Of a stretch of 20,000 nucleotides of DNA, positions 5,075 to 20,000 are shown piece by piece (positions within the stretch are counted from its first letter, which is position 1; every line of letters starts with the position of its first letter). The stretch lies in IMG/VR virus record IMGVR_UViG_3300044540_000317; one strand, given 5' to 3'. The notes below the pieces were generated by a model. That model was given only the letters and a program-made list of their open reading frames with translations. It was not told where the DNA came from and did no database searches. This DNA is from an uncultured virus (IMG/VR IMGVR_UViG_3300044540_000317). Its lineage: Duplodnaviria > Heunggongvirae > Uroviricota > Caudoviricetes. Both the position numbers and the translations under genes were made by a program.

Positions 5075-6190
5075 CTACGTCCGGTAGCCCTCGGCAAGCA
5101 ACGTCCGGTAGGTCTCCGCGCGCTGCGGCGGCAGCTCAGCGATCATGCGCGCTCGCAACGCCTTCGCGCCCGCGGAGATGCTCTTCACCTCGCTGTCGAC
5201 GGCGTACTGACAGAACGGCTCGAGGAGATGCGGCGCGGACGTGTCTGCGTTCAGGACTCCGGCGAGGTACGTCGCGTCTGCGACAGCTTCTCGCTCGGCG
5301 GATAGGAACTCGAATCGGATGACGGTGTGCGCTCCGACCGGTTTGAAGTAGGTGGTGTACAGCTTGCCGCGTTCGGCGAGATTTCCGAGCTCGCCGCTGA
5401 CGGCCGCGAGCGCATCGACGGCCCTCTTCACATCGCCACCAGAACGCGACTCGTTCACGGTCCGTGCTGCTGCTTCGGTCAGAACTCGAGGTGCGAGCAG
5501 CTCGCCCGGCCGTAGGACCTGCGTGGCCAGAACACGGTCCGCCGCAGTGACCTGCACGTTGAACCGGGCGGCGTAGTCGGCGGCGAACTTCGACGCGGAG
5601 TCGCTCTTCGTCAACGCGACCAAACCGCGGCGCGGGCGGTCGAGCAGCGTACGCAGCGCCCCGGCGGCGTCGAGCTCCAGCGCGAGTTTCGCGGCCGCGG
5701 CGCGGATCTCCTGCCGCTTAGCGAACAGTCCCGCCTCGAGCCCGATCAGCGGGGTGAGCAGCGATCCGTCGAGCGCGACGAGGTCATGCGGCGCCGTCGC
5801 GGCGACGCGCAGCTCCGCGGACGCCATTGCGGTCTGCACGAGCGCGTCGGTCCCGTCGGCGTGCTGGATCGCGTGGGCCCACACGAACGGTTCGACTGGG
5901 AGCTTCTCGTCGGTGAACCGGGCATCCTTCGCCGCAGCTGCAGCGAACAGCAGGTCCATCGCGTACGTCTGCTCACGGATCCGGGCGCCATCCACAGCGC
6001 ACATCGAACGCGGAAGGTCGAGGTCGGCGGCGGCTGGAATCTTCGCGATGCCGCCATCCTCGAGCAGGCCGGCGCGAATGCGATCGCGGGCGTCCACGAC
6101 CGAACCCATCGCCGTGTCGACGGTCGCAGCGAGCGCACCCGCAAGGTCAACGAGCTTGGCGGTGATAGACGTCTGTTCCGGGGTGGTCAC
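5075..6190 (-). CDS. nurA: NurA-family nuclease (RNase H-like fold), 371 aa
   Basis: Motif series CAVDGA, LVALDGSL, LVALTKS and LLEPFCQYAVDSEVK follows the NurA pattern (DG, DG, K, C-terminal P-x-x-x-x-A-x-D/H-x-x-x-K). GTG start after AGAGGAG. Confidence 0.8.
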   Translation of the reverse strand: MTTPEQTSITAKLVDLAGALAATVDTAMGSVVDARDRIRAGLLEDGGIAKIPAAADLDLPRSMCAVDGARIREQTYAMDLLFAAAAAKDARFTDEKLPVEPFVWAHAIQHADGTDALVQTAMASAELRVAATAPHDLVALDGSLLTPLIGLEAGLFAKRQEIRAAAAKLALELDAAGALRTLLDRPRRGLVALTKSDSASKFAADYAARFNVQVTAADRVLATQVLRPGELLAPRVLTEAAARTVNESRSGGDVKRAVDALAAVSGELGNLAERGKLYTTYFKPVGAHTVIRFEFLSAEREAVADATYLAGVLNADTSAPHLLEPFCQYAVDSEVKSISAGAKALRARMIAELPPQRAETYRTLLAEGYRT

Positions 6191-6354
6191 GTGTAGCGCT
6201 CCTCTGGCTTGCTCGTTCCAGCGTATCGGCGCCGACCGGCGCCCCTTCCCGACCGCACGGGGGCCCTGTGCGGGGCTGCGCCCAGTCCGCCGGGCCAGGA
6301 AGCCGATGGCGGAGGCGACTTCCGCGCCGCCCAGACGAGAACAGGAACCGCATC

Positions 6355-7713
6355 GTGCTCCGACGTCAGCGTCCCGCGGTAGCGGCCGCAGCCACTGCGG
6401 GAATTCTGGCTCTCCTCGCGACCGCGGTGTGGTTCGGCCTTGAGCCGACGCCGCCAGCGCCGCCCGCCTTCGCCGAGCCGCAACACCGCCAGCCGGTTGT
6501 CACTCCCGCAGCGACAGCCGTCGCGGCGCTCGTTGACGCCTTCACCCCTCCTGCCGGCCAGGAGCCGACTTCGCCGGCATCCCGCATCACGCCCGCAGCT
6601 GACCGGTGTGCCCTTCCATTGACTTCCGCCGCTGCTGTCCGAATCGCCGGGTACTCCTCAGCGAAAGGGTCCGAGACTGCTGTCGCCGTACGTGCATACC
6701 CGGCCGGATTGGGTGCCGAAGCCTCGACGGCTGTACGCGACGAGCTCCTCAACTGCCCCGGAGCTTCCCTGCTGGATGATGACCTCGGGTTCGGCGCCGA
6801 GTCGTACCTCATAGCCCTCCCCGGCACTCGAAGCAGTCCTGAACCGGTCCTGGTCGCGGTGGTCCGCGCCGGCGACGTCGTTGGAATGCTCACCGCCTCC
6901 CAGCAGGCGCCGGACCGCGTTACAACCGTTGTACGGACCTGGTTCGAAGCGTGGACTCCGGTGATGACTGTCGACATCTGCCCACAGCAGGCAACAACGG
7001 TCATCGATGCGACACGCAACCCCTCCCACCCGGACTATGCGGGCGGCTGGGTCCGCCGGGAGACCGTCACCCTCGACGGCGCGCGCGAATCGTCTGCCGA
7101 CATCGCCGGACGCATACTGCTACGCCAGGCGGCAGGGTTCGACGACGCAATCCCGCTGCCGACAGCGCCCCTCCCCGACCCCGCAGTCGCCCCGCTGCCC
7201 GACTTCCCCGCCGAGCTCACAGTCGTGCTCCCCGCGGACCGTCCACTGCGGCCGGAAGCTCCCCGCTACCCGCAACCTCCGACCACGGCGGTCACGGAAC
7301 CTATCGTTGCGAAAGATCCGGTCGGCCCTGGATGCGGATGGGCGTTCACCGGGCTGACCGCGCCTGACGCCGTCGAGCAGACACCTCCTCGAACTGCGGC
7401 GCAGAAGCGCATCGCCGCCGTCGCTGAGCTCGTCGAGGCGCGAGCCGCATGGTGGGTGGCCCGCTACGAATACGCCGTCGCGCACCGCCAGTTCGTGGCG
7501 GACGCGAAAGCCTGGAACGCCTGGCAGGCTCAGGCAACAACGACCATCGCGACAGCCTGGTGGAAGGCGTACGACGACGCATACCGCAGCTACCTCGAAG
7601 CGTCCGTGACGTACATCGCCGACTTCGCCGACTGGGAGGGATGTTCGCGCGACTGCGGTCCGGCCCCTACCTCACCCGTCCCGCCGGAGCAGCCGAAACT
7701 GCCACGCCCCTAA
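6355..7713 (+). CDS. Secreted or membrane-anchored Pro-rich protein, ~452 aa
   Basis: GTG 6355 after CAGGAA; basic N-terminus followed by hydrophobic AVAAAATAGILALLATAVWFGL; several Cys; aromatic-rich helical C-terminus. Confidence 0.7.
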   Translation: MLRRQRPAVAAAATAGILALLATAVWFGLEPTPPAPPAFAEPQHRQPVVTPAATAVAALVDAFTPPAGQEPTSPASRITPAADRCALPLTSAAAVRIAGYSSAKGSETAVAVRAYPAGLGAEASTAVRDELLNCPGASLLDDDLGFGAESYLIALPGTRSSPEPVLVAVVRAGDVVGMLTASQQAPDRVTTVVRTWFEAWTPVMTVDICPQQATTVIDATRNPSHPDYAGGWVRRETVTLDGARESSADIAGRILLRQAAGFDDAIPLPTAPLPDPAVAPLPDFPAELTVVLPADRPLRPEAPRYPQPPTTAVTEPIVAKDPVGPGCGWAFTGLTAPDAVEQTPPRTAAQKRIAAVAELVEARAAWWVARYEYAVAHRQFVADAKAWNAWQAQATTTIATAWWKAYDDAYRSYLEASVTYIADFADWEGCSRDCGPAPTSPVPPEQPKLPRP

Positions 7714-9153: not shown

Positions 9154-9852
9154 TCACGACCAGCGAGCGATGGCGGTAACGGTTCCGGGCGCGATCTCGG
9201 TGAAGCCGGCATCCTCGACCCGGACCGGCGCGAGGTCGACCAGGGTGCGCCAGCGCCACGGTTCGGGGTGCTCAACCGCAACCGGGTATCCGTCTGCAGC
9301 CCAGCGGTCGCGTCGACGGGCCGGCATTGCGGCGAGCGCGATTTGGGCGGCATGGCCCGCCGCAGCAGCCGCTTTCCCGAGCGAAAGGTGCGGGTCGGTG
9401 CTGATCGACACGACCAGGGGCCCGCTCGCGATCGGGGCCATTATCTCCGGGCCGAGGACGACTGGTTCCGAACCGGTCAGCTGCAGTCGGCGGATGCTGG
9501 ACGGGATCTCGTTAACTGCGGTGGGGACCAGTGCGCGAACTGTCGCGCCGCCATGTGCGGAGACGGTGGCAATCAGGCCGGGTGCAGCGTCTACCTTCTC
9601 GAAGTCGGTGGCGGTCCGCGCACGGCGGGCATGCTTGCGGATCCGGCCGGCGGTCCACCGGACGATCGCGTCATGCCACTCCCCGCCGGGCTGGGAGCGC
9701 GGGTCGGTCAGGACGTGAACTACGGCGGTCGCAGCGGCGGAGCAGACGGCAGCGCGCGACGGAGTATCGCTGTTGCGCGGCATCCACGCGATCAGCTGCA
9801 TCGCCCACGGGCTCTCGCCGTCCGGGTCGACGTGGCGGGCATCTTCGCTCAC
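9154..9852 (-). CDS. PTH2-family peptidyl-tRNA hydrolase, actinobacterial type, ~232 aa
   Basis: WTAGRIRKHARRAR, LSLGKAAAAAGHAAQ, VEDAGFTEIAPGTVT; GTG 9852 after GAGG, just downstream of the preceding stop. Confidence 0.88.
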   Translation of the reverse strand: MSEDARHVDPDGESPWAMQLIAWMPRNSDTPSRAAVCSAAATAVVHVLTDPRSQPGGEWHDAIVRWTAGRIRKHARRARTATDFEKVDAAPGLIATVSAHGGATVRALVPTAVNEIPSSIRRLQLTGSEPVVLGPEIMAPIASGPLVVSISTDPHLSLGKAAAAAGHAAQIALAAMPARRRDRWAADGYPVAVEHPEPWRWRTLVDLAPVRVEDAGFTEIAPGTVTAIARWS

Positions 9853-9859
9853 GAGCACC

Positions 9860-10162
9860 TCACTGGTCCTGGCCGATGTCGAACAGGGACATGTCCGGCC
9901 CTGCGTCTGCGTCGTTGGCGGGAATCGCGAGAGGGATGTCCGCCCCGGCAGGGTCTGGGGCCTCGGTCCACTCCGAATATGTCGTGGTGACGGTTCGGAT
10001 CCGCATGATCGGCCGGGAGCCGAGCTGCACGTGCGCCTCGTAGCGGTGCCATGCGAACGCAGCATCGTCGAGGACGCCGGTCGGCACGAGCGACCCGTCG
10101 TTGCGATAGGCCCAGACCTCGTATTCGGTCCGGGTCGTGCTCCGGTCTGCGGTCATGGTCAT
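9860..10162 (-). CDS. Small hypothetical protein, ~100 aa
   Basis: ATGA overlap with the upstream HAD gene; packed into the operon. Confidence 0.7.
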   Translation of the reverse strand: MTMTADRSTTRTEYEVWAYRNDGSLVPTGVLDDAAFAWHRYEAHVQLGSRPIMRIRTVTTTYSEWTEAPDPAGADIPLAIPANDADAGPDMSLFDIGQDQ

Positions 10163-10743
10163 GCTCCCGATGGGTCAAGGTGGGCGGCGATGCGAGTGAC
10201 ATCGTTGAACGTCAGGCCGACAGCAGGGTCCGTCGCAATCAGCAGGCCGGGACTTGCTGGGAACGCTGACGCGTCGTCGGCGCCCGGCGTCAGACCCGCC
10301 ATGGCGATGGCTTCGTCGTCGACCCATGCGTACGGGCGCGGATGCGCAGCGAGATGTGTTCGAAGCGCGACATGCTTCCAGGTTGCGGGGATGGCTCCGC
10401 GGTAGCGGGGAGGCTGCTTCGCGAGGACGAACCCGCCGGCGAGTCGACCGTCGAAAGCTTTCTCAACCAGCGCACGCGCGTTCGGGCCCCACGTGGTCAA
10501 CCAGCCCAAGCCGACCCGGCCGGAGGCGACGAGCTCGTCAAGTGCGTCGATGACGATGTCGTCGAAGTCGATGCGGTATTTCGCTCCGTGCGCGGTCCGC
10601 ACTAGCCGCGACGACAGGCCGGCCGGCGGCGCGAGGTCGGGGTCGTCGAAGACGTTAAGGACCCCGTCGACGTCGAGGGCGAGCAGCGGCAGGCCAGTCG
10701 GAATGTCGGAGGGGCCAAGGAGCACCGGTCGGGTCGCGGTCAT
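10159..10743 (-). CDS. HAD-superfamily protein of the Swiss-Army-Knife RNA-repair (HAD_SAK) type, 194 aa
   Basis: LLALDVDGVLN (motif I), WLTTW (motif II), WK (motif III), AWVDDE (motif IV); ATG 10743 overlaps the upstream stop (ATGA). Confidence 0.87.
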   Translation of the reverse strand: MTATRPVLLGPSDIPTGLPLLALDVDGVLNVFDDPDLAPPAGLSSRLVRTAHGAKYRIDFDDIVIDALDELVASGRVGLGWLTTWGPNARALVEKAFDGRLAGGFVLAKQPPRYRGAIPATWKHVALRTHLAAHPRPYAWVDDEAIAMAGLTPGADDASAFPASPGLLIATDPAVGLTFNDVTRIAAHLDPSGA

Positions 10744-11264
10744 CGGCGGCGCTCCGTGCTCTTGACGATAGTGCCCTCGGGTACATCGAGGACGAGCTCG
10801 GCGGAGTACCCGCATGAGGGGGAGGTGCGTACGGTTCGGATCCAGTCGGGCAGATCTTCGCCCTCTTCGGCCGGCGCGACTCCGATCGCCCACGTGCCGC
10901 CGGCTTTCGTGTAGAGGGCTGTGACGACTAGGGCGCTGCCGTCTGGGGCGGTCAGGACGAGCTCGAGGCCGCCAGCGGGGGTGTTGTACTCGTCGCTGAT
11001 TGCTCCTTCGAGCTCGACAAGGTCGTCGCTGGCGCCGTAGACGCGCAGCTCGCGACGACCGGACAACACACGCCCGATCTCGTCGGCGGCGAGCCGATCG
11101 AGCAGGGCGCGGACCTGACAGGTCCCCCATTTCGCGCCGCAGCCACATTCCGCGTTCTGGTCATGCGCCTCATCGCCGGCGGTCGGATAGACCCGCTGAT
11201 GGTCGACATAGAGCGCCGCTCGCAACGCGACGGCGTCGCGAGCTTCGAAGTTGGGGGCAGTCAT
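10740..11264 (-). CDS. Phage-type hypothetical protein, 174 aa
   Basis: ATG 11264; His/Cys cluster (HQ...CGCGAKWGTC), followed by VYGASDDLVELEGAISDE, a motif I recall from phage hypothetical proteins (not verified). Confidence 0.7.
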   Translation of the reverse strand: MTAPNFEARDAVALRAALYVDHQRVYPTAGDEAHDQNAECGCGAKWGTCQVRALLDRLAADEIGRVLSGRRELRVYGASDDLVELEGAISDEYNTPAGGLELVLTAPDGSALVVTALYTKAGGTWAIGVAPAEEGEDLPDWIRTVRTSPSCGYSAELVLDVPEGTIVKSTERRR

Positions 11265-11281
11265 GGCGCGGACGGTTCTCT

Positions 11282-11554
11282 CTACGGGGTCGACGGTCGG
11301 TCGACGATGTCGGTCAGGTTCTCGGGCTTGGGTGCGAAGCCCGCCAGGAGCATCGGCCAAATGACCGGCAGGGTGCACGCCTCGCCCTCTCCGTGGGTGG
11401 AGTTCGCGACCGCTATCGCGGCGAGGCAGTGCGCCTCCTCGTGCGTGTCGCTGCGCTTCTGGGCGCGACCGAGGAGCCATTCCGCGGCCGCGAAGAACAG
11501 CTTTCCGACTATCCGGTCGGCCAGCGGCAGGTCCGGGCGGGCTGCGTGCGTCAT
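11282..11554 (-). CDS. Small hypothetical protein, 90 aa
   Basis: ATGA overlap with the upstream small gene; operon packing. Confidence 0.55.
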   Translation of the reverse strand: MTHAARPDLPLADRIVGKLFFAAAEWLLGRAQKRSDTHEEAHCLAAIAVANSTHGEGEACTLPVIWPMLLAGFAPKPENLTDIVDRPSTP

Positions 11555-11767: not shown

Positions 11768-11834
11768 TTGCGGCAGTCCTCTGCGCGTTCGTTAGGGCTT
11801 CAGGAGCCATAACTGCCCGAGGAAGGTGCCCCTG

Positions 11835-13274
11835 ATGACTGCACGCGAGGAGATCATCGACGGCGGCCGCAAGATCGTCCTGCGCCGCGACAACGGCGAG
11901 CTTGCCGGCTCCCGCTCGATCGCCGGCAAGTCCGGCATCGCCGCACCGGTAGCGTCAGCCCCTGTCGCGTTCCCCGGAGCTCTCGGCATCGTCGACTCGA
12001 CCCAGCTCGACGAAGCGGAGGTGTTCCTCAACCTCATTCACCACAGCGACATGCCTGCCGTCGACGAGGACTTCGATGCAGTGGAGCATCGAGCAGCATG
12101 GCTCGAGAAGCTCCCCGAACCGCTCCAGGTCGGGTACCTCACGATGCGGACCCTGCCAACCAGCCTGGGCGAGGATCAGGCGCAGTACGTCTTCACGGCG
12201 CTACGCAACAGCGTCAAGCGCTGGGATCCGGCGCCCGTGGAGCCGACGGACCAGGAGTGGGAGACATACCTCGCGGAGACGGCAGCCAAGCTCGCCGACC
12301 CGGAGAACATGATGACTCCCGAGGCTCGTGCGGATGCGCTCGCACGTCTCGGCGCCCTGTCGATCGGTCCGAAGCCGGACGGTCCGACGTTCGCCGTCAT
12401 GGTCAACGCACCCAAGCGGGCCTGGCAGGCCAAGTTCGCCCTCGATCAGCAGGCCCTACAGATCGCATCCTGGGTCGACGCAGACGAGTACGAAGTGAAG
12501 CGGATGGTCACCCGGTTCCGCAGCGAGTACTACGCGCTCGCCGACGCCGGCACGCCGCCTGAGATCGATCCGAAGTATCACTCCGCGTGGAAGCGAACCG
12601 ACTGGTACTCCCCGAAGGACGCCGCGACCGCCTACTCGCATTGGAAGGCGGAGAACCCCGAGCTCTATCTCAACCCGGAGGAACCCCGCCGATTCGTCGC
12701 CCTTGACCTCGAAACGACCGGCCTGTCGACTCGCGACTCGGACATTATCGAGGTCGGCCTGGTCGAGTACGACGCGAAGGGTCGCGAGATCGGCAGTTGG
12801 AACCAGCTTGTTCGCCCGCCGGCGCAGCCGGACGGCTCGATCAGCGTCGGGGACGAGAAGGTCCAGTCGGTGCACAAGATCTCCGTCGAGGACGTCATCA
12901 ACCAGCCGACGTTCGACCAGATCCTTCCCGAGTTGCATAAGCGCCTCGTGGGGGCGACCGTCATTGGCCATAACCTCGCGTTCGACACCCGTCACCTGCG
13001 CACCAACTTCCGCTCCTACGCCCCCGACGGGGATCGTGAGCTGTCGAAGGCTCCTTGGAAGGGTGAGGCGGACACGCTGTTCCACGCCGCACGACACATG
13101 GACGGCTTGGAGAACAACAAGCTGCAGACCGTGTCCCAGTCTCTCGGGATCTCGTACACCAACGGGCACCGGGCCGAGCATGACGCCCGCGCGGCCGGCG
13201 AGGTGTTCTTCGCCCTGCGTAAGCAGATTAAGCGCCGCCAGGCCGCTGCGATCGCGGCGGCAGGTCAACGATAA
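11835..13274 (+). CDS. DEDDh (DnaQ-like) 3'-5' exonuclease with ~285-aa uncharacterised N-terminal region, 479 aa
   Basis: ExoI FVALDLETTGL...IIEVG, ExoII IGHNLAFD, ExoIII HRAEHDA; GAGGAAGG upstream of ATG 11835. Confidence 0.92.
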   Translation: MTAREEIIDGGRKIVLRRDNGELAGSRSIAGKSGIAAPVASAPVAFPGALGIVDSTQLDEAEVFLNLIHHSDMPAVDEDFDAVEHRAAWLEKLPEPLQVGYLTMRTLPTSLGEDQAQYVFTALRNSVKRWDPAPVEPTDQEWETYLAETAAKLADPENMMTPEARADALARLGALSIGPKPDGPTFAVMVNAPKRAWQAKFALDQQALQIASWVDADEYEVKRMVTRFRSEYYALADAGTPPEIDPKYHSAWKRTDWYSPKDAATAYSHWKAENPELYLNPEEPRRFVALDLETTGLSTRDSDIIEVGLVEYDAKGREIGSWNQLVRPPAQPDGSISVGDEKVQSVHKISVEDVINQPTFDQILPELHKRLVGATVIGHNLAFDTRHLRTNFRSYAPDGDRELSKAPWKGEADTLFHAARHMDGLENNKLQTVSQSLGISYTNGHRAEHDARAAGEVFFALRKQIKRRQAAAIAAAGQR

Positions 13275-13411: not shown

Positions 13412-14161
13412 CTACGCGACGCTGAGGGCGCGACGCTCCACGTCGGTCAGCGCACGGCGTTCCTGCTTGCCGAAGGAGATCCTTTCGATGATGTTGCCGT
13501 CGAGGACGCGGAGGTAGACCCCTTCATCTTCTTCCCATACCTTCGTCAGCGTCGTTCCGACGCCGGCGGCGCCGCGAGTCAGCGCGGAGCGGGTGGAGGC
13601 GAACAGTAACGACCCGCCGAGGGTGCGGCCGAGCACGAGGGGGCTGTACGACACACGCGCCAGGTGCAGGATGCGGGCGTCTTCGGCGTCGTACCAGGCG
13701 ACGGCGGCGGAGCCGCGCAGCAGCGCCAGGCTGTCCGTCGCAGGTAGGCCGGAATGAAGCAGGGTGGCGAAGATCGCTTCGGTGTCGACCTGCGCGATGC
13801 GTTTGTTTGCGCCGATCAGGTCGAACAGCTCGTCGTCGTTGTAGATGACGCCGTTGTGGATGCCGACGATGCCGCCAACGTCGACGGGGTGGTTGTTGTC
13901 GTTGTTCGCTGCCTTGCCCTGGGTGGCCCAGCGGGTGTGGCCGATGAAGGTCGGGGCGGTTGCGGGGACGTGCTCGCCTTGGACGTAGGTGCTCGCGGGG
14001 ATGGCGGCTTTCGAGACCCAGGTCTGGCCGTCGTCGGACAGCCAGGCGGTGCCTGTGGCGTGGCGGCCCCGGTCTTCGATGCCGAGCAGCATCTGGGTGG
14101 CGAGCGCAGTTGCGTCGATGGGTTCGGTGGGGTTGAGGCTGGCGCCTGCGATGCCGCACAT
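13412..14161 (-). CDS. Stand-alone class II (Ntn) glutamine amidotransferase, 249 aa
   Basis: N-terminal MCGIAG with catalytic Cys, EDRGRHATG, GHTRWATQG, NNHP, HNGVIYN, VDTE; GGAGG RBS; no fused SIS, PRTase or asparagine synthase domain. Confidence 0.93.
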   Translation of the reverse strand: MCGIAGASLNPTEPIDATALATQMLLGIEDRGRHATGTAWLSDDGQTWVSKAAIPASTYVQGEHVPATAPTFIGHTRWATQGKAANNDNNHPVDVGGIVGIHNGVIYNDDELFDLIGANKRIAQVDTEAIFATLLHSGLPATDSLALLRGSAAVAWYDAEDARILHLARVSYSPLVLGRTLGGSLLFASTRSALTRGAAGVGTTLTKVWEEDEGVYLRVLDGNIIERISFGKQERRALTDVERRALSVA

Positions 14162-14390: not shown

Positions 14391-15173
14391 GTGAAGACGA
14401 CGACAGCAGTCGCCGCCGCGCGCGACACGCCAGGTCCAGCCCGACGACCAACCGGCCCAGCCGACGGCACCGCCGTCGCAACCGGCTTCGGCGGTGCGCC
14501 GCTCACGCCCCTGCACCAGCGCTCAGCCGACGCCATTATCGCCGACTACGGGTTCCTCGTTGACGCTGTCCTGCGCCGCCTACCCCCGCCCGCGCTGCAC
14601 GGCCGCGTCGCCGACATCGACGATCTCCGACAAGAGGGGCTCATCGCCCTACTCGATGCGGCCCGCACCTACAACCCCGCTGCCGGCGCAGCGTTCCCGA
14701 CCTACGCCCGCGTCTGCGTCCTCAACGCCATCCGCATGGTCCTGCGCAAACTCGACGTAGTCCCCTCACAGGTAAGGCGCGACCTGCGCACCGTCCGCGC
14801 AGCAGAGGACCGCCTTGCGCAGACGGGCGACAGCGTCGACGCTTTGCCGGCAACGACCGGTTTGACCGTCAGCCAGATTCGGCACGCACGCCATTGGCAG
14901 CACCTCGCCACCACCGTCGAGCTCGACGAAAGCTCCCCCGCCTCTCATCCTTCACCGGAACAGGCGGTCCTGGCGGCGGAGGAAGCACGGGAGCTGCGCG
15001 CCGCCATTGCCGCACTACCGGAACGGCATCGACGCGTTCTACTCAGCCGCCTGGTCCATGAGACCCCCGTCCGAACACTCGCCGCCGCCGAAGGTCTATC
15101 CCCGGCACGCATCAGCCAGTTGACCACATCAGCCATCCAGGCGCTGGAACAGATCGTCCGACCGACCCCATAA
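14391..15173 (+). CDS. Sigma-70 family, group 3 (FliA/WhiG-like) RNA polymerase sigma factor, ~260 aa
   Basis: Region 2 DIDDLRQEGLIALLDAARTYNPAAGAAFPTYA; LRKLDVVPSQVR resembles FliA LDWVPRSVR; region 4 AIAALPERHRRVL...GLSPARISQL. Confidence 0.9.
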   Translation: MKTTTAVAAARDTPGPARRPTGPADGTAVATGFGGAPLTPLHQRSADAIIADYGFLVDAVLRRLPPPALHGRVADIDDLRQEGLIALLDAARTYNPAAGAAFPTYARVCVLNAIRMVLRKLDVVPSQVRRDLRTVRAAEDRLAQTGDSVDALPATTGLTVSQIRHARHWQHLATTVELDESSPASHPSPEQAVLAAEEARELRAAIAALPERHRRVLLSRLVHETPVRTLAAAEGLSPARISQLTTSAIQALEQIVRPTP

Positions 15174-15221
15174 AGCGCTGACCGTCGGCCGTGGAACATA
15201 ACGCCGGCCGCAAGGGGGGTA

Positions 15222-15797
15222 TCAGCGAGACAACAAGCGGCGGAAGAAGCTCCGGCGCGGCACCAGCTCGTTGCCCGCGGCCCCTTGGGCGTCGGCGGCA
15301 TCCTCAGCCGAACCGTCAGCCCACACGTCCTCCTGCTGGGCCGCTTCCCACGCGAGCAGCAACGCCTCACGCTCCGCCGGCGTCTGGGTCACCATCAGCC
15401 AGAAGACCGACGCGATAACCACGACGATCGCGCCCATGAACGCGTTCCCCAGGTCATGGAACGCGCCGACGATCAGCATTGCCACCATCCATAAACCGGC
15501 CGCAGTGAAGGCGACCCGTCGACGCAGAAGAAGCGGCCAGCGTTCCCGAACGTTGAGCCGCGCATGCCAGGCGTCGTTCAGGGCGGACCACCAGACCACG
15601 TAGCCGGCCAGGAACCACGAAAGGCCCCCGAGCGACCCGGCGATCACCATTACGAGCTCGACCGCATGCAGCGCCAGGCCGACAGCGACGAGCGCGACAC
15701 CTGCCGCGGCGAGGATTCCGGCGAGCGCCTTCGCGCTGCGCCCGGCGAGGATCTGCCGGTCCGCCCAGCCTCGAAAGCTGTCAAGGAGCTGGTTCAT
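15222..15797 (-). CDS. Integral membrane protein with about four TM helices, 191 aa
   Basis: ATG 15797 after GGAAAGGGA; four hydrophobic segments; acidic tail ending in basic RRSFFRRLLSR. Confidence 0.8.
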   Translation of the reverse strand: MNQLLDSFRGWADRQILAGRSAKALAGILAAAGVALVAVGLALHAVELVMVIAGSLGGLSWFLAGYVVWWSALNDAWHARLNVRERWPLLLRRRVAFTAAGLWMVAMLIVGAFHDLGNAFMGAIVVVIASVFWLMVTQTPAEREALLLAWEAAQQEDVWADGSAEDAADAQGAAGNELVPRRSFFRRLLSR

Positions 15798-16066
15798 TGG
15801 GGTCCCTTTCCGGGTTCGGACGTGCACGAGCACCATCGGCGCACCGACTGGCTGCCGAGGCGGACAGCGAGCGAGAGCCCCCGCCGGTCGGCGCATCTGC
15901 GGCCATTTGGCGCCGCCATAGCCGCCCGAGGGGCAGACTCGAGTGCCTCCTCGTCGCGACAGGGACCGCCCGCCGAGCCAACGGCGACGCTGGCCGATAC
16001 AGAAAGGCAAGACACGCGAGCCGTAGGGATACTGAGCACGCGCCCACCCACGCAGGAGAACAAGAC

Positions 16067-16615
16067 ATGACTATCCAGCTGCTCAAGAACAACTCAGAAG
16101 CCGACGGTCCGGTCATCGCACCGATTAAGGCCGACGGCAGCGGCTTCCCCCTCGGCATGTACTACAACGGCTACGCCGACGTCGCCTTCGCCGACACCTA
16201 CGCAGAGCTTCTCGACATCCTCATGCCCGGCTATGCCGCGGACGACGAAGCCGCCCAGATCGCCCGCCGCATCACGCTCGCCGCCAACGTCGCCGCACAA
16301 ACCCAGGCCAGCGTCATGTACGACGCCGACCGCTCCGACTTCACCGACGCCGAGTGGGAAGCCCTCACCACCCCGCGCACGATGAAACAGCCGACAGTTC
16401 TGTGGTGGACCCACGAGGTCCCCCTCGTCGTGTACGAGACGGCATACGAGCCGTACACCGACGTCCCCCGTCCCGCATCCGCCCAGGCAGACGGCGCCGC
16501 CGACGCACCGAACCTGTGGTGGATTCGGAACGTCGAAGAAGAGGACTTTCTCATCAGCCTGCACGAAGTCGGCTACATCCGACTCATGCAGAACCTCACC
16601 ATCACCGAAGACTGA
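16067..16615 (+). CDS. Acidic hypothetical protein, 182 aa
   Basis: ATG 16067 after CAGGAG; strong C/G third-position bias; followed by a terminator. Confidence 0.85.
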   Translation: MTIQLLKNNSEADGPVIAPIKADGSGFPLGMYYNGYADVAFADTYAELLDILMPGYAADDEAAQIARRITLAANVAAQTQASVMYDADRSDFTDAEWEALTTPRTMKQPTVLWWTHEVPLVVYETAYEPYTDVPRPASAQADGAADAPNLWWIRNVEEEDFLISLHEVGYIRLMQNLTITED

Positions 16616-16636
16616 TCCCGGCGCCACCACCGGCCG

Positions 16637-16676
16637 CGAAGGCCCCGCACGCGCTCGAGCGCCGGCGGGGCCTTCG
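16637..16676 (+). terminator. Intrinsic terminator
   Basis: CGAAGGCCCCGC pairs with GCGGGGCCTTCG (12-bp stem), followed by TGCTTTCT. Confidence 0.8.
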
Positions 16677-16780
16677 TGCTTTCTCGCGGCGGGCGCCTAC
16701 GCCACCAGCCGCCGGCTCGTTAGGGACCCCGTTGGACGGAACGACCGTCCCGCGCAGCCCTAAACGTCGCCGAGGTCCCC

Positions 16781-19369
16781 ATGTCCTGCCGCACCACCCC
16801 CGCCGGATCTGCCTTCACCTCCTACGCGCGCCTCACCGCCGGGGCGGGCATGTCTGACGTCGCAACCCTCTCGGCCTTCCACCAGCTCCGCCGAGAATGG
16901 CAGCAACAGCCCTCCACCGACCACGCCGCTAACCTCGTCACCCCGGACGCGTACCGCAACTACGTCCAAGCAGCGATCGAACAGGTCCGAGCAGATCAAA
17001 GCCTCACCGAGGCTCGCCGCGCCTCCCTCCTTGCTCGCCTCGAAGAAGCAGCCAACGCCGACCCGCTACCCGACCAAGCAACCGTCTACGCCCTATCCCG
17101 CATCCACGCCTACGTCGGCTCGCAAGCGACCCACCGCGGCCGGTTCCTCAACGACTACATCGCCGCCACTGGCGCGACCGCCGACGAAGCCGCCGCCAGG
17201 TTCCGAGAGCTCGAGCACGGCATCGACCGCGCCCGCGACGCCGCAGACCCCGACACGTACACGCCCGAGAACATCCTCGCCGCCACCAACGCCGGCCTCG
17301 GCACCGAAGCGGGAACCGTTCACGCGTTCGTCACCCTCCGCGCAGAAGCGGCAGCCGCCCGCCGCAGCGCCGACAGCGCCCGCCCGCCCCGCGTCGCCCT
17401 GACCCCGAACGTGAACGACCTCGCGTACAACGGGCTCCGCGTCACCGGCTACGGTCACGACCCCCGCACCCGCCACTTCGAAGTCGAGGTCGAGAACGTC
17501 GACACCGGCGAGCGCACCATCCGCTCGTACCGCGCCATCGACGACTGGCACGTCAGTCAGATGACGAACACCGACGGGCCCGGCATGACCGAGTACTGGG
17601 CCCAAAACATTCGCGGACGATCCTGGTACCGATACGGCAGCCGCGAGCAAGCCGAACATGCCCGCCTCGCACCTCGCTGCCCCGCCTGCGGCCAGTGGGC
17701 AACTTTCGGGCACACCTGCCCCGTCGAGCAGGTCGGCGACATCCAGCGGTTCGAGCTCGGCCTCTACCGGACCCGCACCTCCATCCAGAACCTCACCCTC
17801 CCCGTCGTATCCCCCACGACCGGTGAGACCGTCCAGGCCGACATTAGCCTCCGCCTGCCGCTCGTCGCGGAGATGCGTCGCGTCACCGACGACCGCACCC
17901 TCATCCTCTCAGGCGTCAACGAGTACGTCTTCCTGTCCGGCGCCGGCACCGGCGACATCGGCTGCGCCCGCGTCACCGGCGACCTCGCCCTGGTCCGCAA
18001 CCCCGACACCGGCGATATCACCGTCAACAACCAGCTTCGCTGCGCATGCGGCCGGTTCGCCGCCGACCGGCAACCCTGCGACCACATCCGCGCCTACATC
18101 GTCGCGGCCCAGCACCGCATCAACCCGCCGAGCCGGTCGCGCGCGCCCCGCAACGAAGAAGAGCGCATCGCCGCCGCAGCCGCCGCGCAGGCCGCCGCCG
18201 AAGCGGCAGCCGCCACGGACTGGACCCGCAACGAGGAGACTCTCGCCGAAGCGCGCCGCACCTGGAACGCCGACGCGGAAGTCATCTACTCCGAGAACTT
18301 CGACGCGTTCCGGGACGACTACGCCGCCGCCGAAGCCGCGCTCGCGGCCCGCGAAGCAGGTGACAAGCGCGCCCCGCTGCCGTACCTGCGCGAGAACGCT
18401 CTCGGCGGCCTCGCCGCGCCCGGCAGCGGGCAGGCGTTCGGTGTCGAGATCGAGTACGACTTCCCACCCAGCATGGACTACGTCCAGCGCGCCCACACGA
18501 ACCAGCGGATCGCTCAGCAGCTCCACGCCGCGGGCCTGACCAGCGCACCCCGCATGCTGCAGTACCACGCATCCCAGCGCCGCGGGTTCACCGACTCTCA
18601 CACCGACGCGGACGGGAACGGCACCTGGTCCCTCGAGCATGACGGGTCCGTCGCCGGCGAGCTCGTCCCGCCCGCGATGTACGACACCCCCGAGACGTGG
18701 GAGAAGCTCGAGACCGCGTGCCGAATCCTGCGCGAGAACGGCGCGATCGCCTCAACCAAGGTCGGCGGACACATCCACGTCGGCACCGGCTTCTACAGCG
18801 GCGACGCCCGCAAGTACAGCGAGCTCGTCAACCTGATGAACCAGCACGAAGACATCATGTTCCGCCTCGGCCAGAACCCCGAACGCGGCCGGCACCGCCA
18901 GGGCCTCTACACCGCGCCGCTCCACGAAGCACCCGCGACGGGGTTCGCCGACATCACTGAGATGCGCACCTGGCGCGCCAGCGCCCGCACCCGCACCCTC
19001 AACCTCGGACACGTCAACGGCAGCAGCAGCGACCACCCCGAGTTCCGCCTCTTCGACGGAACCCTCGACCCGGCAACCATTCAGGCGCAGGTGAAGCTGG
19101 CCGTCACCATGACGCACGCAGCAGCACGCATTGCCGACTCCGGCGGCACCAGCCGCCGTAAAGAGAAGATCGGGTCGCACGCCGCCCGCGCCCGCGCCGC
19201 CGGCCGCCGCACCCGCCGGCTGACCGACGAGGAACTCGCCGCCGACACCACCACCTTCCGGTCCTTCATGGACACCCTGTTCACCCGGCGGGAGGACAAG
19301 GCCCACATCACCACCCTGTTCGCAGCAACGAAATGGGTCACCCCGACCGGCGCGAACACGCGCCACTGA
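16781..19369 (+). CDS. Multidomain COOH-NH2 ligase (Amidoligase_2-type) with KTSC-like, Zn-ribbon and SWIM modules, 862 aa
   Basis: Ligase motifs FGVEIEY, HDGSVAGELVPP, VGGHIHVG, EFRLFDGTLD; SWIM CACGRFAADRQPCDH; Zn ribbon CPACGQWATFGHTC; KTSC-like GYGHDPRTRHFEVEV...RSY (the weakest call); GAGG RBS. Confidence 0.88.
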   Translation: MSCRTTPAGSAFTSYARLTAGAGMSDVATLSAFHQLRREWQQQPSTDHAANLVTPDAYRNYVQAAIEQVRADQSLTEARRASLLARLEEAANADPLPDQATVYALSRIHAYVGSQATHRGRFLNDYIAATGATADEAAARFRELEHGIDRARDAADPDTYTPENILAATNAGLGTEAGTVHAFVTLRAEAAAARRSADSARPPRVALTPNVNDLAYNGLRVTGYGHDPRTRHFEVEVENVDTGERTIRSYRAIDDWHVSQMTNTDGPGMTEYWAQNIRGRSWYRYGSREQAEHARLAPRCPACGQWATFGHTCPVEQVGDIQRFELGLYRTRTSIQNLTLPVVSPTTGETVQADISLRLPLVAEMRRVTDDRTLILSGVNEYVFLSGAGTGDIGCARVTGDLALVRNPDTGDITVNNQLRCACGRFAADRQPCDHIRAYIVAAQHRINPPSRSRAPRNEEERIAAAAAAQAAAEAAAATDWTRNEETLAEARRTWNADAEVIYSENFDAFRDDYAAAEAALAAREAGDKRAPLPYLRENALGGLAAPGSGQAFGVEIEYDFPPSMDYVQRAHTNQRIAQQLHAAGLTSAPRMLQYHASQRRGFTDSHTDADGNGTWSLEHDGSVAGELVPPAMYDTPETWEKLETACRILRENGAIASTKVGGHIHVGTGFYSGDARKYSELVNLMNQHEDIMFRLGQNPERGRHRQGLYTAPLHEAPATGFADITEMRTWRASARTRTLNLGHVNGSSSDHPEFRLFDGTLDPATIQAQVKLAVTMTHAAARIADSGGTSRRKEKIGSHAARARAAGRRTRRLTDEELAADTTTFRSFMDTLFTRREDKAHITTLFAATKWVTPTGANTRH

Positions 19370-19382
19370 CCCCGACCTGCGC

Positions 19383-19437
19383 CGTCCACGCCGGAGCCCC
19401 GCACCGATCGAGTAGGTGCGGGGCTCCGGCGTGGACG
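19383..19437. terminator. 23-bp perfect inverted repeat, likely a bidirectional terminator
   Basis: CGTCCACGCCGGAGCCCCGCACC (19383-19405) pairs with GGTGCGGGGCTCCGGCGTGGACG (19415-19437); 9-nt loop; lies between convergent genes. Confidence 0.85.
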
Positions 19438-19476
19438 AGCCAGGGACGGCTCCGAACGCGTTGGGGCGCTATGCCG

Positions 19477-19680
19477 TCAACTCACCGACGCGAGCGCGAC
19501 CGTCGCAACCGTGCCCAGCAGGGCCGTGGCGACCGTCGCGACAACAACGATGAACAACGCAGCGAGCGCCGCAGACGCAGCCAGCTCCCGCGCCGTCGCA
19601 CCGACGGGCTCCTCCACATCCTCGAAACGGGCCCGCAGAACCGTCTCAACCTCGGCCGTGGGAGTGGGGATCTGAGTCAT
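19477..19680 (-). CDS. Small membrane protein, 67 aa
   Basis: ATG 19680 after GGAAGGA; long C-terminal hydrophobic stretch. Confidence 0.6.
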   Translation of the reverse strand: MTQIPTPTAEVETVLRARFEDVEEPVGATARELAASAALAALFIVVVATVATALLGTVATVALASVS

Positions 19681-19823
19681 GCAACGTCCTTCCGGGAACC
19701 TGACGCGGTCAGCGAACAACAAGCCGTCAACGAACGCTCAGCACACCGGCCGGCGCCGACAGCCGCGCACACTATCGGCGCTGCACGGCTCCGCGATCCA
19801 ACGCCGCCGCCGATGACCCGCCC

Positions 19824-20000
19824 ATGACCTCCCAGACTGCTTCCGTGACCGTCTCCACCGACGGGTCCTGCCTGCGCAACCCGGGCGGACCGTCCGGGTG
19901 GGCGTGGTACGTCGACGAGGACTGCCACAGCTCCGGCGGTTTCGCGTCCGGAACCAACCAGCAAGCCGAGCTCATGGCCGTCCTCGCTGCGCTGCGCCAA
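19824..20000 (+). CDS. rnhA: Ribonuclease HI, N-terminal part (continues beyond the window)
   Basis: Manual translation: MTSQTASVTVSTDGSCLRNPGGPSGWAWYVDEDCHSSGGFASGTNQQAELMAVLAALRQ, showing the DGS..NPG and TNxxAEL catalytic motifs; not in the ORF track. Confidence 0.92.
   Translation, partial: MTSQTASVTVSTDGSCLRNPGGPSGWAWYVDEDCHSSGGFASGTNQQAELMAVLAALRQ

Follow-up and report, generated by a model that had tools for sequence, protein, structure and literature searches.

The 20,000-nucleotide stretch analysed here (the window) comes from an uncultured virus record assigned to the Caudoviricetes, IMG/VR IMGVR_UViG_3300044540_000317. Its plus strand carries, at 16781-19369, a gene for a multi-domain amidoligase of 862 amino acids (aa), P0001, in which a catalytic domain of the Amidoligase_2 family is preceded by a helical module (the N-module), a KTSC-fold domain, a zinc ribbon, a beta-sheet domain with a SWIM finger and a helical connector. 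The gene and its parts are as follows, with the basis of each call in brackets.

16781..19369, plus strand: whole gene, P0001, 862-aa multi-domain amidoligase (list of open reading frames, translation, homologues, structure model)
16781..17380, plus strand: N-module, all-helical domain of about 190 aa, residues 1 to about 200 (model, phmmer, conservation)
17396..17656, plus strand: KTSC-fold domain, residues 206-292 (VIA-align, Foldseek)
17669..17728, plus strand: zinc ribbon or knuckle, C300-x2-C303 ... H311-x-C313 (invariant ligands)
17735..18121, plus strand: beta-sheet domain ending in a SWIM finger, the finger at about 18017-18121 (signature, model)
18122..18421, plus strand: conserved helical connector, residues 448-547 (helices 459-477, 485-494 and 507-522 in the model)
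18422..19366, plus strand: Amidoligase_2 catalytic domain, glutamine-synthetase / carboxylate-amine ligase fold, residues 548-862 (Pfam, PHROG, structure comparison)
18446-18454, plus strand: ligase motif E556-x-E558 (translation)
Within 16781-19369, plus strand: ligase motif D621-G-S-V-A-G-E627, or DGSxxxE (translation)
Starting at 18770, plus strand: ligase motif H664-x-H666 (translation)
Starting at 19040, plus strand: ligase motif E754-x-R756 (translation)

The open reading frame (ORF) has an ATG start, is the longest open frame of its region and shows a codon bias typical of coding DNA, with a G+C fraction of 0.88 at third codon positions (GC3) against 0.54 at second positions (GC2) in a window of 62-71% G+C. 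Among 5.8 billion clustered proteins, a word-indexed search retrieved 72 relatives; about 55 share 38-50% identity with P0001, nearly all across 96-100% of its length. These 55 full-length or near-full-length homologues form alignment A1; with 11 more distant relatives they make up a set of 66 sequences. The start codon is secure, because 52 of the 55 aligned homologues share an opening M-[S/T/V]-C-R in one alignment column; of the other three, two are truncated and one departs from the pattern. The AlphaFold2 model of P0001, built with A1, had a mean predicted local distance difference test score (pLDDT) of 90.9 and a predicted TM-score of 0.65, and a second model covering residues 201-460 reached a pLDDT of 92.2. 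P0001 is a conserved, confidently modelled multi-domain protein, far beyond what chance would produce.

Mean identity across the family was highest in the ligase (54%), followed by the ribbon (50%), connector (49%) and N-module (43%). The KTSC (27%) and beta-SWIM (24%) parts are the fastest-diverging and least conserved. An NCBIfam scan of P0001 matched no family, and a profile search of A1 against PDB sequences gave nothing significant (the best match, at E 0.031, was unrelated, and the KTSC protein 4rgi appeared at E 1.5). Literature searches found neither this architecture nor a characterised member. This agrees with an earlier sequence-only reading of the same DNA, which knew of no characterised enzyme built in this way.

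The C-terminus is a ligase of the glutamine-synthetase fold

Pfam Amidoligase_2 (PF12224) matched residues 551-775 of P0001 at E 2.8e-10 with 40.9 bits (cut-off 22), and the profile matched 54/55 family members. PHROG 2443 ('amidoligase enzyme') matched P0001 at E 5.6e-13. The ExE, DGSxxxE, HxH and ExR motifs that the sequence-only reading had listed are all present in the translation, and we take them to map onto the metal and ATP ligands of glutamine synthetase (GS). Residues E556, E558, E619, D621, E627, H664, E754 and R756 were invariant in all 55 sequences of A1, and H666 was conserved in at least 90%.

Structure comparison placed the domain in the same superfamily. With VIA-align, residues 548-851 matched the small-molecule ligase YbdK (1tt4_A, Z 13.9, root-mean-square deviation (rmsd) 4.1 Å over 245 residues; 1r8g, Z 13.8), glutamine synthetases (Z about 13, with a Foldseek E of 7e-4), a plant glutamate-cysteine ligase (GCL; Z 13.0) and gamma-glutamylmethylamide synthetase (Z 11.8). 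The protein-acting enzymes Dop (Z 12.2) and PafA (Z 10.6) also matched but ranked below YbdK and GS, indicating no special kinship of P0001 to the pupylation enzymes. Among viral models in BFVD, 33 of phage amidoligase type matched the domain at E<=1e-3. The C-terminus is a true Amidoligase_2 ligase of the GS fold, as had been proposed, and sequence and model together predict ATP-dependent formation of an amide bond. The helical connector in front of it is kept in shorter plasmid-borne forms, and plasmid homologues align from about residue 490.

Divergent KTSC and SWIM modules lie either side of an invariant zinc ribbon

The KTSC-like stretch of the sequence-only reading gave no match to Pfam KTSC (PF13619) in P0001 itself at E<=1. 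Its fold was recognised by VIA-align, in which residues 206-292 matched 7x8c_A at Z 7.9 (rmsd 1.9 Å, 68/69 residues; the next row had Z 5.1), rising to Z 8.2 in the whole-protein model. Foldseek on the modules ranked the KTSC protein 4rgi first (probability 1.00, TM 0.74) and 7x8c third (probability 0.99). The Pfam profile matched 11 of the 55 family members at E<=0.1 (best 9.7e-6), and many distant relatives sharing the N-module exceed its cut-off of 25 bits at the same position after that module (for example P0137 with 69.3 and P0142 with 76.1 bits).

Ribbon ligands C300, C303, H311 and C313, together with G304, Q305 and P314, were invariant in 66/66 aligned sequences, and P0001 also gave a weak rubredoxin-type ribbon match (Pfam Zn_ribbon_LapB, E 0.047). 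The SWIM signature C421-x-C423-x9-C433-x-H435 was likewise invariant in all 66. Pfam SWIM (PF04434) scored 13.6 bits in P0001, under its cut-off of 19.6, and matched three of 55 family members at E<=0.1. Three relatives lie above the cut-off (P0114 with 23.6, P0115 with 20.0 and P0065 with 19.8 bits), and the match in P0114 aligns to P0001 residues 419-441. The model places the first Cys pair of the finger at the end of a beta-hairpin and the C-x-H at the start of a helix. Among solved structures, the beta-SWIM part, model residues 119-251, matched only unrelated proteins (best VIA Z 5.1), and all Foldseek rows besides the two KTSC matches had E >=0.13.

KTSC and SWIM of P0001 are divergent versions that single-sequence Pfam searches miss. 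Given the KTSC fold match and the SWIM fingers of relatives that do pass the Pfam cut-off, all the earlier domain calls stand. The sequence-only reading had named two sequence-based grounds for rejecting the architecture: no KTSC or SWIM fold in the model, and N-terminal modules not conserved among homologues. Neither applies, as KTSC has a clear fold match, SWIM is recognised by its signature and a homologue, and the ribbon and SWIM ligands were invariant in 55/55 and 66/66 sequences. Recognition modules are duplicated or lost between paralogues. P0114 carries a tandem duplicate of the beta-domain and SWIM unit, both copies aligning to P0001 residues ~340-455, and P0065 has an additional SWIM copy that does not align to P0001.

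Binding of single-stranded DNA or RNA by KTSC domains, given as established in the sequence-only reading, was overstated: the domain is called 'RNA-binding' in one paper and 'DNA-binding' in another, with no experiment reported in the passages concerned. The KTSC, ribbon and SWIM parts of P0001 have isoelectric points (pI) of 5.6-6.9 and are not basic (the KTSC domain has a pI of 5.55). Recruitment or triggering of P0001 by nucleic acid is possible. Gene context gives it no direct support, and the evidence against it, from the charge of the modules and from a KTSC-nucleic-acid link that is only asserted, is weak but real.

The N-module is shared with other enzyme types

A phmmer search with residues 1-200 against 1.84 billion cluster representatives (E<=1e-3) returned 107 proteins. 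The match starts at residue 1 in 93 of these and within ten residues of the start in nearly all. No Pfam family covers the module in P0001 or in the N-module relatives scanned. When all 107 representatives (10 members of A1, then 61 and 36 others) were scanned with Pfam, the following was found C-terminal to the N-module.

65 or 66 representatives: Amidoligase_2, often with KTSC and sometimes with SWIM
4 representatives, plus P0074 from locus L002: GGACT / AIG2-like gamma-glutamyl cyclotransferase
2 representatives: RimK-type ATP-grasp (one at the cut-off, one just below)
1 representative: ArdC-N plus an M78 / DUF6782 metallopeptidase
1 representative: NT5C 5'-nucleotidase
5 representatives: KTSC only
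28 representatives: no Pfam family (many are short and may be fragments)

The sequence-only reading had seen a helical N-terminus. The helices are present in the model, but the region is no linker: it stands as a module in its own right, found on enzymes of other types too. Across 108 sequences it retains M1 (100/104), C3 (104/104), R4 (102/104), S10 (97/104), H34 (105/108), R86 (101/108) and P97 (97/105). The fixed Cys3 together with His34 hints at an N-terminus-dependent role, be it a signal, a metal site or chemistry. A protein-atlas search with residues 1-200 and with the upstream acidic protein described below gave no usable feature matches, and its structure rows had TM values of at most 0.38 with low-confidence models. 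In the structure comparison of the whole model the N-module was not represented in the top 50 rows, which says nothing for or against a known fold.

An acidic partner, a GAT-II hydrolase and AIG2 cyclotransferases are linked to the ligase

A survey of gene neighbourhoods, which had been proposed as a follow-up, found three kinds of gene associated with the amidoligases: a gene for an acidic partner protein, a class-II glutamine amidotransferase (GAT-II)-like N-terminal nucleophile (Ntn) hydrolase gene, and AIG2-type cyclotransferase genes whose products include carriers of the N-module. The features of the window that belong here are these.

16067..16615, plus strand: gene for P0075, a very acidic 182-aa partner, directly upstream of the ligase gene (ORF; AGGAGA resembling a ribosome-binding site before the ATG)
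16638..16675, plus strand: GC-rich hairpin between the partner and ligase genes, a possible terminator or attenuator (read from the sequence)
13412..14161, minus strand: P0109, a stand-alone GAT-II-like Ntn hydrolase beginning MCGIAG (Pfam, PHROG)

P0075 has 34 homologues of about 180 aa, none with a Pfam domain. The family has a median pI of 4.1 and a net charge of -15 to -26, and is conserved along its whole length save for the last 4-8 residues, which vary in sequence and length. A relative lies directly 5' of an amidoligase gene in nine instances: in the window, in homologue loci L001, L004, L005 (twice) and L006, and on C1 (twice) and C2, two contigs of a metagenome-assembled genome (MAG), G001. 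A predicted complex of the partner with ligase residues 300-862 scored 0.00 in both runs, which is uninformative either way. The hairpin between the two genes folds as RNA at -41.3 kcal/mol (z -2.78 against shuffles), and a consensus terminator scan did not list it.

P0109 matched Pfam GATase_6 (E 4.5e-20) and PHROG 14519 (E 2.6e-48), and its Cys2 nucleophile is visible in the translation. GAT-II proteins with Cys2 are encoded near amidoligase genes in five loci (the window, L001, L004, L006 and L011) and on contig C2. AIG2/GGACT genes are linked to amidoligase genes in four loci (L001, L002, L004 and L006), and five GGACT proteins share the N-module with the ligase. The combination of a partner gene, a GAT-II gene and an AIG2 gene bearing the N-module points to a reversible mark of gamma-glutamyl amide type.

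Distribution, plasmid relatives and replicon type

The N-module and KTSC domain are missing from the relatives found on actinomycete linear plasmids, whose matches begin at residue 279 or later. These relatives form a nested series of shorter proteins, with SWIM and ligase or with ribbon, beta domain, SWIM and ligase, in tandem arrays of 2-4 paralogues. Neighbouring genes on Streptomyces and other actinomycete plasmids encode DUF4417, ParB-N, replication-relaxation, FtsK-like ATPase, lytic transglycosylase and N6-methylase proteins. A Clostridium perfringens plasmid carries a minimal amidoligase after DUF4417, near dcm. DUF4417 stands immediately upstream of the amidoligase gene or array in L001, L004, L005, L006, L009 and L042, often with ParB-N and a DNA methylase nearby, and this linkage covers two phyla, in actinomycete and C. 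perfringens plasmids.

Plasmid and phage collections held no DNA nearly identical to the window. A scan of viral contigs found four loci, all matching the catalytic domain alone, and a metagenome scan found nine short loci, two of which cover P0001 from residue 1. Scanning 185,579 species genomes with three peptide patterns gave full-length copies from one contig. Contigs with P0001 homologues include some of 124-393 kb and more, and reach 260-812 kb.

The closest full-length context is contig C1 of G001. This MAG is labelled Polynucleobacter; its contigs C1 (91.6 kb) and C2 (50 kb) have 42% G+C. Together the two contigs hold four amidoligase genes and seven N-module ORFs, and none of 40 relatives of the MAG carries the gene. 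C1 encodes DnaE, GyrA/B, DnaG, two copies of ClpP, ClpC/B, RadA, RecG, NucS, a HerA-like ATPase, Tmk, RNase HII, RecX, a sigma-70 factor, a prepilin peptidase, a DnaC-like loader and a repressor, together with Dam, GmrSD_C, a YqaJ/RecE-like protein and MazF. Also present are a tmRNA whose tag reads ANSKTEFALAA, a single tRNA-Met and genes for large fn3/PKD proteins and for a pilin-like protein with fn3. Of the C1 ORFs scanned, 40/76 have no Pfam family.

PHROG searches of 26 window ORFs gave matches to families for replication, proteases, sigma factors and GATases alone, with no structural gene, and 58 C1 ORFs likewise yielded neither capsid nor portal; a prophage or phage origin of the window is unsupported by these searches. 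The window and the scanned C1 ORFs showed no capsid, portal or conjugation genes. Candidate identities for the replicon are a giant extrachromosomal element, a huge phage and a genome piece, wrongly binned, from an unsampled organism.

Other genes of the window include DnaG and a sigma-70 factor, and thymidylate kinase, NucS and RecG are among the DNA-metabolism genes of C1 and the window. At 3-1451 on the minus strand, open at the window edge, lies a subtilase gene (Peptidase_S8, E 1.6e-34) whose product carries fibronectin type III at its C-terminus. A NurA-like protein is encoded at 5075-6190 on the minus strand (Pfam E 1.1e-4; 41% identical to the syntenic gene of L002); the ORF beside it at 6268-7713 on the plus strand matched no family, and no HerA partner was identified in the window. 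At 11826-13274 on the plus strand is a gene for a protein of 482 aa that joins an unassigned N-terminal part of ~280 aa to an exonuclease domain of DEDDh/RNase_T type at the C-terminus. This protein shares 47% identity with the product of a syntenic gene close to the L002 amidoligase and matches the PADLOC candidate model PDC-S48 at E 1.7e-34. Both the NurA-like and the exonuclease genes are syntenic with C1. Overlapping candidate ORFs at 10740-11480 and 9154-11148, both on the minus strand, are uncertain gene calls with only weak, patchy matches; in the 9154-11480 region these are to PHROG 10666 (a family of unknown function, E 1.9e-18), PTH2 (E 6e-6) and HAD_SAK_2 (E 2.5e-7). From 15001 to 20000 the plus strand has a GC skew of -0.10 to -0.24 and an AT skew of +0.19 to +0.29, much stronger than in the first 14 kb.

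Comparison with known systems

The catalytic family and its linkage to GAT-II and AIG2 genes are already known, as a predicted and uncharacterised system. The Pfam description of PF12224 presumably matches the linkage of P0001 to GATase_6 and AIG2 genes. Iyer, Abhiman, Burroughs and Aravind, in Mol Biosyst 2009, are said to have predicted Amidoligase_2 genes of phages and plasmids whose partner genes encode either an AIG2 cyclotransferase or a thiol peptidase resembling GAT-II. Pairing of amidoligase with GATase, at times with ATP-grasp, recurs in LUZ24-like and OM43 phages, and the accounts of it, as far as they were available, describe the function as still to be explored. P0001 shares with these pairs its catalytic family, the GATase_6 and AIG2/GGACT linkage and the occurrence on both plasmids and phages. 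Most of the phage and Clostridium forms among the matches listed have about 250-630 aa, and their alignments are confined to P0001 residues ~530-860; P0001 adds the N-module, KTSC, ribbon, beta-SWIM domain, connector and acidic partner gene, and the AIG2 enzyme shares the N-module.

The SWIM-amidoligase arrays of actinomycete plasmids (Streptomyces, Kutzneria, Embleya and Nonomuraea), annotated only as 'amidoligase family protein', stand closer, with 34-40% identity from the ribbon or SWIM to the C-terminus. Partner, GAT-II-like and GGCT genes accompany them too. They differ in lacking the N-module and KTSC and in having 2-4 tandem paralogues beside DUF4417, ParB-N and transfer genes. YbdK/GCS2, GS and GCL are the best structural matches over 245-255 residues, with the acidic and histidine motifs conserved, but share 9-13% identity with P0001, act on free small molecules and lack N-terminal recognition modules.

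PafA and Dop share the superfamily fold at about 10% identity. The logic proposed below resembles pupylation in that one enzyme would write, and another erase, a gamma-glutamyl isopeptide on proteins. The proposed erasers at P0001 loci are an Ntn hydrolase and an AIG2 cyclotransferase, whereas the pupylation eraser Dop is a paralogue of the ligase. Polyvalent proteins of phages and conjugative elements (Iyer et al., J Bacteriol 2017, PMC5512222) are multi-domain proteins of invasive elements, as P0001 may be, and one N-module protein provides a link to them by carrying ArdC-N plus a metallopeptidase; P0001 differs in having a single catalytic domain. The text of that paper contains neither 'amidoligase' nor 'KTSC' and mentions SWIM only for SWI2/SNF2 ATPases.

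Discussion

We tentatively favour, with less than even confidence, the interpretation that P0001 is a targeted and reversible gamma-glutamyl or isopeptide ligase acting in conflict between a large replicon and its host. As a member of the Amidoligase_2 branch within the GS superfamily, the protein would join carboxylates to amines at the expense of ATP, and its KTSC, zinc ribbon and beta-SWIM modules may aim the catalytic domain at a specific macromolecule. A carboxylate would be activated as an acyl phosphate and then joined to an amine on a protein or other amine-bearing polymer, giving most likely a gamma-glutamyl-type or isopeptide amide. The linked GAT-II Ntn hydrolase and AIG2-type gamma-glutamyl cyclotransferases are candidates for removing or processing the mark. 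The acidic upstream protein of ~180 aa probably works with the ligase as a subunit, regulator or substrate, and the N-module, with its Cys3, Arg4 and His34, may be a common handle that localises, delivers or regulates the enzymes it is fused to. Such a system would belong to large replicons and plasmids and would most likely act in establishment or in host-cell conflict. We propose a mobile, conflict-related setting mainly because relatives occur on plasmids, paralogues stand in arrays and one N-module protein is of ArdC type.

Several observations weigh against this interpretation. Literature searches found no substrate or activity for any Amidoligase_2 member, and PADLOC-DB v2 models at E<=1e-3 matched none of P0001, P0075, P0109 and the GGACT fusion P0074. 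In the window, the GAT-II gene lies 2.6 kb away on the other strand with a sigma-factor gene between; because of this and the strong hairpin between the partner and ligase genes, operon coupling there looks looser than elsewhere. The N-module says little on chemistry, since it is also fused to a 5'-nucleotidase and to ArdC-N, which are not peptide-bond enzymes. Furthermore, C1 could be the chromosome of an unsampled organism and not a mobile element: it carries DnaE, gyrase, ClpP/ClpC, RecG, NucS and a tmRNA and gave no capsid or portal match. That would weaken the conflict reading. The comparison with pupylation also has a limit. Pup is a small tag protein with a conserved C-terminal Gly-Gly-Gln/Glu. 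A Pup-like role for the partner was rejected because its C-terminus is variable; it is moreover ~180 aa long and conserved along its full length.

Modification of DNA or RNA is an unlikely alternative to a polymer-directed isopeptide ligase. The modules would bind nucleic acid and the ligase would add an amino acid or polyamine to a pre-modified base, or amidate a carboxylated base, so that the replicon DNA resists host nucleases; the GAT-II protein would supply or remove the amide group. DNA-metabolism genes surround the ligase in the window and C1 (DnaG, the NurA-like and DEDDh exonuclease proteins, thymidylate kinase, NucS and RecG), plasmid relatives adjoin dcm or N6-methylase and ParB-N genes, and other N-module proteins carry an NT5C deoxynucleotidase or ArdC-N. 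All of this would fit, as would the description of KTSC as DNA-binding or RNA-binding and of phage amidoligase-GATase pairs as common, in the excerpts of the literature available. The modules themselves argue otherwise, being neutral to acidic, and Pfam scans of the window and C1 found no kinase or transferase genes of known base-hypermodification pathways. We also know of no nucleic-acid substrate for AIG2/GGACT enzymes, which act on gamma-glutamyl amines.

To a small-molecule or peptide synthetase we likewise assign a low probability. The product of such an enzyme would be a gamma-glutamyl amine, a metabolite resembling a dipeptide or an altered precursor of the cell wall, and the N-terminal modules would serve oligomerisation or regulation only. 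The best structural matches are small-molecule ligases (YbdK, GS, GCL and gamma-glutamylmethylamide synthetase), GAT-II enzymes classically supply ammonia from glutamine, and phage amidoligase-GATase pairs are reported to have been suggested to modify the cell wall or make secondary metabolites. However, about 550 residues of conserved, zinc-bearing modules of recognition type would be unusual baggage for such an enzyme. Sequence divergence in these modules also outpaces that of the catalytic domain, and paralogues differ by their duplication or loss. The GAT-II protein stands alone, without a synthase partner domain, and the protein-acting Dop and PafA match the ligase domain nearly as well as the small-molecule enzymes do.

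Least probable is a housekeeping role, with P0001 encoded on the chromosome of some unsampled bacterial lineage and serving, say, a Pup-like or cofactor pathway with no mobile or conflict link: the cell-type replication, repair and protease genes and tmRNA of C1, the 260-812 kb homologue contigs and the lack of capsid, portal or conjugation genes in the window and scanned C1 ORFs would suit it, but it sits poorly with the many C1 ORFs lacking a Pfam family, the several paralogues per replicon (four ligases and seven N-module proteins in G001), the absence of the gene from all 40 G001 relatives, the single contig with full-length copies in the three-pattern scan of species genomes, the plasmid-borne shorter relatives and the Dam, GmrSD_C, YqaJ/RecE-like, MazF and repressor genes of C1.

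Beyond the targeted ligase itself lies a broader and more speculative proposal, which we regard as improbable. The N-module may define an undescribed cassette system of large replicons that switches on or delivers a toolbox of enzymes (the targeted amidoligase, an ATP-grasp ligase, the gamma-glutamyl cyclotransferase, an ArdC-type peptidase and a nucleotidase). The module is a helical domain of ~190 aa placed obligately at the N-terminus, and Cys3-Arg4...His34 could then form a catalytic dyad, act as a metal hook or provide a site for covalent attachment requiring a free N-terminus. The ligase and the N-module cyclotransferase would be writer and eraser of a new reversible gamma-glutamyl-type mark on host or replicon macromolecules. 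If true, the pair would constitute a system of signalling or sabotage that resembles pupylation without involving the Pup pathway.

In the literature searched, which did not cover Iyer et al. 2009, the full architecture, the acidic partner, the N-module with Cys3 and His34 and its spread over at least five enzyme types appear to be undescribed. Compared with the minimal phage forms, the family has additional handles: fast-diverging recognition modules that are shuffled between paralogues, a dedicated acidic partner and putative erasers sharing the N-module. These could allow a target to be identified through the KTSC-SWIM region, opening up the whole amidoligase family. The function of the N-module, whether in delivery, docking or N-terminal chemistry, would explain how poorly understood large replicons deploy their enzymes.

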